A DNA stretch of 64,000 nt from Myxococcales bacterium (GTDB lineage Bacteria; Myxococcota_A; Polyangia; Haliangiales; Haliangiaceae). The notes beneath the pieces were generated by a model. It made no database searches. It was given only the letters and a program-made list of their open reading frames with translations, and was not told the DNA's origin. The position numbers and the translations under genes are program-made. Positions 6,285-15,339 of the stretch are shown one piece after another (positions within the stretch are counted from its first letter, which is position 1; each line of letters starts with the position of its first letter). The stretch covers positions 348,863 to 412,862 of the forward strand of contig JADJFN010000001.1 of assembly GCA_016708565.1 (NCBI GenBank). The letters run 5' to 3'.

Positions 6285-9200
6285 GTGGCTGAGCGCACCA
6301 GCACCGTGACGACGTGGGCGCTGGCCCGCGAGCTGCCGTCGGGCGCGACCACGTGGGCGCCGGTGGTGGCGCCCGAGCTGTGCGCGTTCGGCGACGGCGA
6401 CGCGCCGGCCGACGAGCTGCGCGTGTTCCTGGCCGAGCACCTGGCGACCGCGCCGGCGGCGCAGGTGGCGCGGTACTTCGTGCCGGCCGGCCTCGAGGTG
6501 GTGGCGATCGCGGTGCCGCTGGCGCCGGGGGCGCCGACCAAGCCGCGGGCGCCGCGCGACGTCGAGGTCACCTGCGTGCTCCTGCCGTACGGCCCCGAGG
6601 GCCGCGATCGCGTGGCGCTGGTGCCGGCGCTCGATGCGGCGTTCTTCGTCGATCGCAAGGAGGAGGTGGGCGAGGTGGCGCGGCGCGAGATCGCGCGGCT
6701 GTGCGCGGCCAGCGGCCTCGACGGCAACGCCTGGCGCCGCCTGCTGCCGCCGCTGGCGGCGTCGATCGAGCCGCTCGAGGTGCTGGTGCGGTTCGCGCAG
6801 GCCGAGGTCACCGGCGCCGATCGGGTCGCGGCCGAGGAGCGGCGCCGGGCCCGCGAGCGGCTCGAGGCCCACGCGGTGCCGCTGGCCGATCGGGTGCGCG
6901 GCGGCGGCGCGGCGCTGGTCGGGCGCGATCGCGAGCTGGCGTCGATGACCGCGCTGCTGGGCGGGCGCGAGCGGCTGGCGGTGCTGGTGTGCGGCGACGA
7001 GGGCGTCGGCAAGACCGCGATCGTCCTCGCGTGGGCCCGGGCCCAGCCGCAGCGCGCGGCGTGGGTGACGTCGGTGGCGCAGCTGGTGGCCGGCGCGTCG
7101 GGCTTCGGCGAGGCCGAGGCCCGGGTGGCCGACCTGTTCGCGGCGGCCGAGCGGCTCGACGCGGTCTTGTGCTTCGACGACTTCGGCAGCCTGTTCCGCG
7201 AGCGGGTCGAGGACGGCGGCCTGGGCCTGACCGCGATCGTGCGCCGGTTCATCGTCGACGCGCGGGTGCGGGTGGTCGCCGAGATCACGCCGGCGGCGCT
7301 GGAGCGCGCCGAGCGCCGCGAGGTGGCGCTGATCGGCGCGATGACCCGGCTGACGGTGCCGGCGATGGACGCCGCGGCGACGCTGGCGGTGGTGACCGGG
7401 CGCGCCGCGCACTGGCGCCGCGCCGACGCGCGCCGGCCGCAGCTCGCCGCCGCGGCGTTGTCGGTCGCGGTCGAGCTGGCGCGGCGCTACCTGCCGTACC
7501 GCGCGTTCCCCGGCAAGGCGGTGACGCTGCTCGACGATCTGCGCGCCGCGGCCGACGGCGAGGTCGGCGCCGACGGCGCGCCGCGCGAGCTGGGCCCCGA
7601 CGCGGTCTACGACGGCTTCGCCGCGGCCACCGGCGTGCCGGCGTTCCTCTTGCGCGACGATCGGGCGCTGCTCCTCGACGAGCTGATCGCCCGGCTGCGC
7701 ACGCGGATGATCGGTCAGGAGGCGGCGGTGGCGCGGGTGGCCGAGACGCTGTGCACGGTCAAGGCGCAGCTGCAGCCGGCCGACAAGCCGCTGGCGACGT
7801 TCCTGTTCGTCGGGCCGACCGGCGTCGGCAAGACCGAGCTGGCCAAGAGCCTGGCCCACCTGCTGTTCGGCTCCGAGGGGCGGCTGGTGCGGTTCGACAT
7901 GAGCGAGTACGCCGATCCATGGGCGGCCGAGCGGCTGATCCGCGGCAGCGACGCCGGCGAGGGCCTGCTGACCGCGCGGATCCGCCAGCAGCCGTTCGCG
8001 GTGGTGCTGCTCGACGAGATCGAGAAGGCGCACCCGGCGGTCCACGATCTGCTGTTGCAGGTGGCGGGCGAGGGCCGGCTGACCGACGCCCGCGGCCGCA
8101 CCGCGTACTTCCACAACGCGATCGTGATCCTGACGTCGAACCTCGGCGCCCACGGCCGGGCCGCGGCGATCGGCCTGGCGGTCGGCGCCGGCGACGACGA
8201 TCGCGCGCGCGAGCTGGCGCGCTACCGGGCCGCGGTGACCGAGGCGTTCCGCCCCGAGATGCTCAACCGCCTCGACGCGATCATCCCGTTCCATCGCCTC
8301 GACGCCGCGCAGATCGCCGCGGTCGCGGGGCTGGCGCTGGCCCAGCTCTCCGAGCGGCGCGGGCTGGTCCAGGCCAGCATCACGCTCGACGTCAGCCCGG
8401 CGGCGGCGGCGGCGCTGGCGGCCGGCGGCTACGCCCCGGCCTACGGCGTGCGCGCGCTGCGCCGCCACCTGGATGAGGCGGTGATCGCGCCGGCGGCGCG
8501 GCTGGTGGCGCGGCTGGGCAAGGACGCCCACGGCGCGCTGCTCGCGGTGCGCACCGTCGACGAGCCGGCCGCGGTCGACCTGCCGGCCGGCGCGCACCTG
8601 GGCACCACCGAGCCCGAGGCCGGCGTGGTGGTGGCGGCGTGGCGGCGCGGCGGGGCCGGCGGTCGCAAGAACGCCCGCGGCGCGCTGGCGGTGGCGGCGG
8701 TGCGGCGGGTGGCCGACACCTGGATGCGCCACGACGTCGCCACCGAGGTGAAGACCCAGATCGCGTGGCTGAAGTCGCAGCTGGCGCGCGGCGCGGCGCA
8801 GCCCGGCGGCGCGCAGGCCGGCAAGCGCAAGAAGGCGGCGCTGTCGAGCGCGCAGGTGCAGCAGATGAGCATCGAGCTGGCGCGGCTCGAGCGGGCGTGG
8901 GACGCCGCGGCCGCGGCGCAGGAGGACCTGGCCGCCGCCGAGGAGCTGGCGATCGCCGCGGCCCAGGCCGGCGACGACGTCGAGGCGGCGGTGGCGATGG
9001 CGGGGCCGCTCGAGGACGCGTTCACGACCGCGATGTTCTGGCTGGCGGTGGCGCGGCGCGAGGATCGCGACGAGATCACGCTGACCTTGTCGGCGCCCGA
9101 GCACCCGCGCGCGCTGGGCCGCTGGGTGACCGGCATGCTCGAGCTGGCGGCGGCGCGCGGCTGGACCGTGCACGCGCACCCGACGGTGGCCAAGGAGCCG

Positions 9201-15339: not shown

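Follow-up and report, generated by a model that had tools for sequence, protein, structure and literature searches.

A stretch of 64,000 nucleotides from a Myxococcales bacterium (GenBank assembly GCA_016708565.1, contig JADJFN010000001.1, positions 348,863 to 412,862; hereafter the window) carries three translationally coupled paralogous genes of the Clp/Hsp100 type, here called P1, P2 and P3, each encoding two AAA+ modules (D1 and D2). The analysis indicates that the three proteins are probably the different subunits of a single double-ring AAA+ unfoldase resembling ClpA, a mixed hexamer in which D1 would serve as a scaffold and D2 as the motor. The family to which they belong is undescribed and is not ordinary ClpA, ClpB or ClpC. 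Positions below are those of the window, and features lie on the plus strand unless a minus sign is given. P1 (6285-9707, 1140 aa) consists of an N-domain, a degenerate D1, a D2 that appears active from its motifs, and a C-terminal extension. P2 (9704-13072, 1122 aa) starts with GTG in a 4-bp overlap with the stop codon of P1 (GTGA), and P3 (13069-15339, 756 aa) starts with ATG in a 4-bp overlap with the stop codon of P2 (ATGA) and has no C-terminal extension. The G+C content at third codon positions (GC3) is approximately 0.98 in all three reading frames. Pfam AAA_2 (E 1e-37 to 1e-39) and ClpB_D2-small were found in each protein, the first AAA module giving the weaker signal; the Pfam content of P1 comprises AAA_2, ClpB_D2-small and AAA_lid_9.

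The D1 modules lack the catalytic Glu of the Walker B motif. P1 keeps the P-loop Lys in its D1 Walker A motif (Lys243 of GDEGVGKT, aa 237-244, nt 6993-7016), and in its Walker B motif, VLCFDDFGS (aa 294-302, nt 7164-7190), D298 is the Walker B Asp and D299 takes the place of the catalytic Glu. P3 likewise keeps the Lys (Lys240 of GEAGVGKT, aa 234-241, nt 13768-13791) and the Walker B Asp (D302 of WLFADRLVDL, aa 298-307, nt 13960-13989), with R303 in place of the Glu. In P2, the Walker A motif GRPGSGRAT (aa 238-246, nt 10415-10441) is degenerate, Lys being replaced by Arg244 and Thr by Ala245, and the Walker B motif LLWFDDLHLF (aa 308-317, nt 10625-10654) has D313, invariant in the P2 family, at the Glu position. 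The Walker columns were fixed by a phmmer comparison of P1 with Mycobacterium tuberculosis ClpC1 and Escherichia coli ClpB, by comparing ClpC and ClpB with profile hidden Markov models (HMMs) built for each of the three paralogue families, and by a MAFFT L-INS-i alignment that included full-length E. coli ClpA and fragments of ClpB and ClpC1. The D1 profiles matched the D1 of ClpC, ClpB and ClpA at E values of 1e-28 to 1e-35, the P1-family profile matching Clp D1 domains at 1e-33. ILFIDE was aligned with VLCFDD (P1), LLWFDD (P2) and WLFADR (P3) in four independent alignments. For example, phmmer placed 'avlcfDDf' of P1 opposite 'ilfIDEL' of ClpC1 and ClpB; the P3-family profile placed 'LyvdrL' opposite 'LFIDEL' of ClpC; and the P2-family profile placed 'iLWldDLh' and 'GrpGsGkt' opposite 'ILFIDELH' and 'GEPGVGKT' of ClpB. 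P1 D299, P2 D313 and P3 R303 occupy the position of ClpB E279 and ClpA E286, and the pairing of GRPGSGRA with GEPGVGKT puts R244 of P2 at the Lys and A245 at the Thr. A MAFFT --auto alignment was one residue off at Walker B, a shift that the HMM and L-INS-i alignments resolved as an artefact. An overlooked DE pair or a misplaced P-loop was ruled out, because the four alignment methods concur. The initial annotation, whose quoted D1 strings were all recovered in place, had claimed that every D1 lacks the catalytic Glu and that P2 also has a degenerate P-loop. Both claims were borne out, the first by alignment with the D1 domains of ClpA, ClpB and ClpC (Asp, Asp and Arg in P1, P2 and P3, respectively) and the second by the HMM and L-INS-i alignments, which set GRPGSGRAT in the Walker A column.

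The degeneration of D1 is a trait of the family, neither chance nor decay. Among 159 aligned relatives from several phyla, on which all D1 counts are based, Glu never occurs at the Walker B Glu column (0/159). The motif reads [DE][DNSA] in P1 proteins, [DE]D with an invariant second Asp in P2 proteins, and mostly DR in P3 proteins (29/40 orthologues). The P-loop Lys is kept in 152/159 relatives and replaced by Arg in six P2 proteins and one P1 protein; within P2, GRPGSGR[AST]T is the form seen in a subclade from Kofleriaceae, and GPPGSGKT is found in more distant orthologues. Decaying pseudogenes were ruled out by the intact open reading frames (ORFs), the GC3 of 0.98, and motif states that are kept down to approximately 35% identity. 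Both trans-acting arginine fingers of D1 are also gone in nearly all of the relatives. At the finger positions (ClpB R331/R332, ClpA R339/R340), GA is found in P1, QL in P2 and DA in P3; the P1 segment VALIGAMTR (7323-7349) stands opposite AALERRFQK of ClpB with both Arg absent. Because the fingers were lost independently, a hydrolysis-dead D1 is much likelier than it would be from Walker B alone. The sensor-1 Thr and the P-loop Lys are largely kept among the relatives. Since the P-loop is kept, D1 probably binds nucleotide, and since both the Walker B Glu and the arginine fingers are absent, it should not hydrolyse ATP; the P2 of the window has probably lost even binding.

The Walker A, Walker B (LLDE), sensor-1 (TSN), Arg finger (NRxD) and sensor-2 (G[AV]R) motifs of D2 are essentially invariant among the relatives. 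The D2 core of P1 (7812-8036) contains the Walker A motif GPTGVGKT (7812-7835), a short pore loop, RLIRGSDAGEGLLT (7932-7973), and the Walker B segment VVLLDEIEKAHP (8001-8036). The corresponding elements of P2 (core 11267-11491) are GPTGTGKT (11267-11290), RLIGDRFTPDGLLT (11387-11428) and VVLLDEIEKAHP (11456-11491), and those of P3 (core 14572-14793) are GPTGVGKT (14572-14595), RLLEVGGGASSLAE (14692-14733) and VVLLDELEKAHP (14758-14793). This pore-1 loop is five residues shorter than that of ClpA, ClpB and ClpC, and the Tyr of GYVG is gone in P1-P3 and in all relatives. An aromatic residue in the D2 pore loop is seen only in the P2 lineage, as Trp in most orthologues and Phe in the window. 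Canonical pore tyrosines are found only in the D1 of P2 and P3, where the pore-1 loops read AGMQYFGDWE (10550-10579) and AGMTYLGMWQ (13885-13914), respectively; the P1 loop, AGASGFGEAE (7089-7118), has Gly at the position of ClpB Y251. This Tyr is Gly in 26/32 P1 orthologues, usual in P2 proteins and invariant in the P3 family. These findings refine several statements of the initial annotation. Its view that D1 binds nucleotide without hydrolysing it agrees with the kept Lys (152/159) and the absence of Glu and fingers, subject to the caveat of a conserved Glu on strand beta4 that is weighed below. Its suggestion that the D1 of P2 may not bind nucleotide at all is plausible for the window P2, where substitutions have removed the P-loop Lys and the beta4 Glu as well as the Ser/Thr that coordinates Mg, but the change is limited to the Kofleriaceae subclade. 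The description of every D2 as canonical holds for the ATPase motifs, but not for the pore-1 loop without GYVG, nor for the sensor-2 of P1, which is GVRALRR rather than GAR. Finally, D2 may well be the only motor as regards ATP hydrolysis, but not necessarily as regards the gripping of substrate, for which the pore Tyr is present only in the D1 of P2 and P3.

D2 also carries a tripeptide loop of the hGF/hGL type, located 6-8 residues past sensor-1 in all paralogue families and having no counterpart in ClpB. The P1 loop AIGLA (8166-8180) lies opposite the ClpP-docking IGL (617-619) of E. coli ClpA. PIGFG of P2 (11618-11632), which is invariant in a 37-sequence P2 alignment, and GVGFG of P3 (14920-14934) both lie at the position of ClpA IGL and ClpC1 LGF. 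Because these IGL/IGF/VGF loops occupy the ClpA/ClpC docking position, the unfolded chain is probably passed to ClpP.

The most interesting feature of the family is a release-factor-like module, which was beyond the scope of the initial annotation. C-terminal extensions of approximately 370-395 residues are present on P1 and P2, and P3 has none. The module of P2 (11957-13069, aa 752-1122) comprises a helical bundle, a disordered insert and a beta superdomain resembling PCRF, with the motifs EHGTH (12728-12742) and GPPNPEALLPAVRT (12881-12922) and no GGQ. Its structure prediction was confident (predicted local distance difference test score 86, predicted template modelling score 0.81), and in a Foldseek search with this model the best 45 matches were all RF1, RF2, mtRF1 or PrfH. 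At the level of the predicted fold, the P2 C-domain can thus be assigned to the PCRF (domain 2/4) type. The extension of P1 (8520-9704, aa 746-1140) is likely a divergent homologue of the P2 module, as judged from profile comparison (hhalign 80%). In other phyla, the gene-1 C-domains matched P1_C at 98.6%, P2_C at 92% and the PCRF-type domains of single-gene relatives at 77.5% (hhalign), and the gene-1 and gene-2 C-domains belong to the same profile network. These single-gene relatives supply a link to release factors in sequence. Pfam PCRF matched their C-terminal domain, above the gathering threshold in 2/5 tested (L081 and L072), and the domain was aligned with E. coli RF1 over residues 109-211 by tblastn and over residues 123-185 by hhalign (33% identity over 63 columns); their PCRF-bearing domain matched the P2 C-domain with an hhalign probability of 88.6%. 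A conserved GGQ was found in none of the C-domains, and PF00472, the RF-1 catalytic domain, gave no match. EHGTH was rejected as a GGQ equivalent, because the PCRF-bearing relatives align it with the motif E-S-G-G-H of release-factor domain 2. From these alignments, the catalytic domain 3 of release factors appears to be missing from the module, with a single helix in its place.

The N-terminal domain of P2 (9704-10318) is an alpha/beta domain of approximately 200 aa that is not Clp_N, and homologous domains are found in P1 (6285-6899) and P3 (13069-13683). No Pfam match to Clp_N was obtained in P1, P2 or P3. A structure model of the N-domain weakly resembles the HicB N-domain.

In a genome scan, the three-gene array turned up throughout Myxococcota: in Kofleriaceae, Polyangiaceae, Sorangium, Nannocystaceae/Enhygromyxa, Sandaracinaceae, metagenome-assembled genomes (MAGs) of Myxococcaceae, and Archangium gephyra. 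Triples of similar organisation, with proteins of approximately 1100, 1100 and 790 aa, are present in Planctomycetota, Acidobacteriota (Pyrinomonadaceae) and Verrucomicrobiota (loci L047-L078). The three-gene order is fixed across these four phyla; the flanking genes differ between loci. Orthologues of P1 were collected from 33 loci, and full-length relatives of P2 reach down to 46% identity in a homology search. The nearest named relatives are Kofleriaceae and Myxococcales MAGs, the nearest public protein to P2 (P0001) being approximately 99.6% identical. Among the related loci, the 4-bp overlap is seen at 20/31 P1/P2 junctions and 26/36 P2/P3 junctions, and no uncut contig was seen with an incomplete set of the three paralogue types. 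A neighbour-joining tree of the AAA core groups the P1 of Myxococcota with gene 2 of Planctomycetota, Pyrinomonadaceae and Verrucomicrobiota; contrary to this tree, the N- and C-domain profiles pair gene 1 of the other phyla with P1 and gene 2 with P2. Single-gene relatives are present in Hyphomicrobiales, Calditrichota and Planctomycetota (L046, L054, L066, L070, L072, L076, L080 and L081), lying at about 6100-9600 in most of their loci, and like P1-P3 they combine a degenerate D1 with a D2 that has a short pore loop and an hGF loop.

Taken together, these features suggest the following mechanism. P1, P2 and P3 would co-assemble into a mixed hexamer, a proposal to which the fixed gene order, the frequent 4-bp overlaps, the variable neighbours and the complementary losses all point: P1 has no D1 pore Tyr, P3 has no C-domain, and an aromatic residue in the D2 pore loop is restricted to P2. 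D1 may form a non-catalytic, nucleotide-bound collar for assembly and stabilisation, by analogy with Pex1/Pex6, whose D1 ring is ATP-bound and catalytically dead (PMC10518020). The first contact with the substrate would be made by the Tyr pore loops in the D1 of P2 and P3, and D2 would be the sole ring to burn ATP. ClpA offers precedents, as its D2 can unfold and translocate when D1 has been made unable to hydrolyse ATP (PMC8666677), and activity in three of the D2 modules is enough (PMC7568338). The hGF/hGL loops of D2 would then dock on ClpP. The family-specific N-domain and the GGQ-less C-modules of P1 and P2 are likely targeting devices, and the C-modules may bind the class-I release-factor site, either the A site and decoding centre of the ribosome or a release-factor partner.

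Several observations weigh against the mechanism proposed here. As regards D1, the Asp that replaces the catalytic Glu in P1 and P2 might permit residual hydrolysis, and a trans-acting role is conceivable for an Arg that many P1 and P3 proteins have 2-3 residues beyond the lost fingers. Strand beta4 of D1 also bears an almost invariant Glu that could take over as a catalytic residue. This is Glu333 of VVAEITPA in P1 (7272-7295), two residues before sensor-1, and E335 in P3 (14062-14085); the equivalent in P2 is T348 (10736-10759), the Glu being lost along with the P-loop Lys. F1- and RecA-type ATPases have their catalytic Glu on the strand adjoining the P-loop strand, and D1 could by this route be a non-canonical active ATPase with a Glu relocated to beta4. 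The Glu is indeed present in 147/159 relatives, missing solely in 12 P2 proteins including that of the window, and is invariant in 5/6 paralogue groups and found in the single-gene relatives; the retention of the P-loop Lys and sensor-1 Thr, and the joint loss of Glu and Lys in the window P2, fit such a role as well. However, both arginine fingers are lost, the losses of Glu and Lys in the P2 family are loosely linked (8 sequences combine K with T, and 3 combine R with E), the Glu sits two residues inside the strand, and to our knowledge no AAA+ protein offers a precedent for a catalytic Glu relocated in this way. An active D1 is therefore considered improbable, and the beta4 Glu may instead form a structural salt bridge.

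As regards D2, the deleted GYVG is the main mechanistic puzzle, since ClpA requires its D2 GYVG loops for robust unfolding (PMC8666677). Moreover, no clpP gene was found in the window or in approximately 80 related loci. These two points would suit a remodeller that works independently of ClpP, for example as a disaggregase or in the disassembly of complexes, with the hGF loop serving some other contact or the packing of its own C-module; the large C-modules on D2 might also crowd the side that faces ClpP. Such a remodeller is possible, although every paralogue family has the tripeptide exactly where ClpA and ClpC carry their docking loop, ClpB lacks a loop of this kind, and there is no M-domain for coupling to DnaK. 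The genes clpA and clpC are often unlinked to clpP, so the absence of clpP near the operon is uninformative on coupling, and transfer of the chain to ClpP is still preferred here.

The argument for a hetero-oligomer is a genomic one, and the single-gene relatives demonstrate that the architecture can work as one gene. Each of P1, P2 and P3 could accordingly assemble into a homohexamer of its own, with clients that differ between the three, and the operon would reflect co-regulation only; one subunit type can evidently suffice in the relatives of the same architecture, and no paralogue lacks any part of the D2 active site, the Arg finger being present in all three. This arrangement seems rather unlikely in view of the three-gene order strictly kept across the four phyla with its frequent overlaps, the complementary losses of pore-loop Tyr, D2 aromatic and C-domain, and the lack of uncut contigs with an incomplete set, all of which agree better with a mixed hexamer.

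The link to release factors is visible in the window at the fold level only. No sequence-level link between the C-domain of the window and release factors was obtained with PDB profiles, Pfam or hhalign against E. coli RF1, and Pfam PCRF was not detected in the window proteins themselves. Nor did a C-domain profile search of 1.84 billion representatives yield a release-factor link; the 150 matches listed, out of 216, look like family members or fragments. No release-factor genes were found near the operon. A bolder version of the mechanism, in which the release-factor-like arms dock the heterohexamer at the A site and decoding centre of stalled, vacant or hibernating ribosomes, so that it extracts the bound protein or nascent chain, or splits the ribosome, and feeds ClpP, is regarded as speculative and unlikely in this full form.

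Comparison with known systems places the family near ClpA and ClpC. The likeness consists of two AAA+ modules, the Clp-type D1 lid, ClpB_D2-small, a D2 ATPase that agrees motif for motif, and a D1 pore loop of the KYR type, which has its Tyr in P2 and P3; as in ClpA, there is no M-domain and the IGL/IGF/VGF loop is at the IGL position. In contrast to ClpA and ClpC, P1-P3 lack Clp_N, the D1 Walker B Glu, the D1 arginine fingers and the D2 GYVG loop, and possess a new N-domain, a release-factor-like C-domain and three obligatorily linked paralogues. The NCBIfam ClpA model scored 261-287 bits against a cutoff of 993, and the ClpA (TIGR02639), ClpB (TIGR03346) and ClpV-TssH (TIGR03345) equivalogs scored 215-315 bits, all below their cutoffs of 885-1232. 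The proteins share with class I of Clp/Hsp100 the tandem AAA+ modules with AAA_2 and D2-small, but not a complete D1 or Clp_N. With the unfoldases that partner ClpP (ClpA, ClpC, ClpE and ClpX) they share the tripeptide loop, but not GYVG in the ClpP-proximal ring. ClpB/Hsp104 and ClpV gave the highest-scoring D2 sequence matches; unlike them, P1-P3 have an hGF loop, a degenerate D1 and no M-domain, and there are no type VI secretion genes nearby. The linker from the D1 lid to D2 is only about 15 residues, and the HMM alignments skip ClpC residues of approximately 400-470, which leaves no coiled-coil M-domain. Membership in ClpB, ClpV or ClpK/G was ruled out by the scores, the missing M-domain and the genomic context.

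Pex1/Pex6 resembles the family in its degenerate D1 with a kept nucleotide-binding loop and in its D2 motor (PMC10518020). Paralogous subunits share one double ring in Pex1/Pex6, an arrangement to which gene linkage and motif losses point in the present case. Pex1/Pex6 nevertheless belongs to the classic AAA clade (NSF/Cdc48-like), is eukaryotic, has two subunit types rather than three and aromatic D2 pore loops, and has no protease partner. As compared with RF1 and RF2 (and also PrfH), the C-module of P2 is without GGQ, has a shorter loop at the position of the PxT/SPF anticodon motif, contains a disordered insert of approximately 55 residues and is fused to an AAA+ motor. Vms1-Cdc48 and Pelota(Dom34)-ABCE1 are alike in logic only, combining a release-factor-like module (inactive in Dom34) with an ATPase (PMC6514570). 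Their modules are of the eRF1 type, structurally unrelated to RF1/RF2, and reside in separate proteins, whereas the module of this family is part of a fusion and its link to the ribosome is a presumed one. The initial annotation had likened the architecture to that of specialised unfoldases; this was largely right on the division between D1 and D2, as far as the motifs indicate, but incomplete, as it had overlooked how widely the operon is conserved, along with the release-factor-like domains and the ClpP-type loop. A full-text literature search, incomplete in coverage and hence yielding absence of evidence only, found no report of the operon or of a Clp-PCRF fusion, and a 2019 survey of release-factor evolution (PMC6514570) describes neither such an operon nor a Clp-release-factor fusion.

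The division of work between double AAA+ rings is an open question that has mostly been studied with engineered mutants of ClpA, ClpB and p97. The present family is a natural experiment in at least four phyla, in which a ring that is hydrolysis-dead by its motifs bears the pore Tyr and the live ring has a truncated pore loop, and its one-gene and three-gene forms permit direct comparison. If the paralogues co-assemble, they would represent a bacterial counterpart of Pex1/Pex6. The fusion of a Clp motor to a release-factor module without its catalytic part suggests an unexplored way of aiming an unfoldase at the translation machinery. Should the ribosome-docking version be true, the complex would apply the logic of Vms1-Cdc48 and Pelota-ABCE1 in bacteria in the form of a fusion protein, and Pex1/Pex6 would no longer be the only double-ring heterohexamer. 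Cultured carriers include Archangium gephyra, Sorangium spp., Enhygromyxa salina and Verrucomicrobium sp.

The surroundings of the operon bear on whether it might be an anti-phage or conflict system built on AAA+ ATPases. In the D2 region, matches to two PADLOC models, PDC-M37B and DolB, were obtained (E 1e-16 to 1e-28), and the flanking genes are variable. However, these matches span only the generic AAA_2 core of D2, and no effector, nuclease or sensor gene recurs beside the operon in the comparison of flanking ORFs, whose all-against-all clustering yielded only shadow ORFs. The identity gradient within Myxococcota follows taxonomy, from Kofleriaceae through Polyangiaceae to Myxococcaceae, and a defence role is thus highly improbable.

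The nearest public contig (GCA_943370995.1, CALRTH020000101.1) has 98.6% DNA identity over 18.4 kb (window 4688-23070). Upstream of the operon, the window stretch 1133-4344 is only 74% identical to this contig and is thus variable; the matching region of the contig lies inside a minus-strand gene that is very large (1815 aa, ended by the edge of the locus). A divergently transcribed gene at 4894-6198 (-) encodes a 434-aa protein without a Pfam family that starts with a lipoprotein-type signal, MRPLLIALLATTAALAGCGS; this gene is not kept beside the operon in other loci. In three Archangium loci (L015, L016 and L041), the gene upstream of P1 (approximately 2400-3700 of the locus, minus strand) has an HExxH motif (GHELGH). 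The motif suggests a putative M48-type zinc metallopeptidase, and the gene is present neither in the window nor in most other loci. Downstream, at approximately 15340-23540 as mapped from the near-identical contig, the operon is followed by genes for a LysR-type regulator (-), a 216-aa protein without a family, a Ser/Thr kinase (-), an FHA-domain protein (-), a TPR protein (-) and a RarA/MgsA-type AAA+ ATPase (+).

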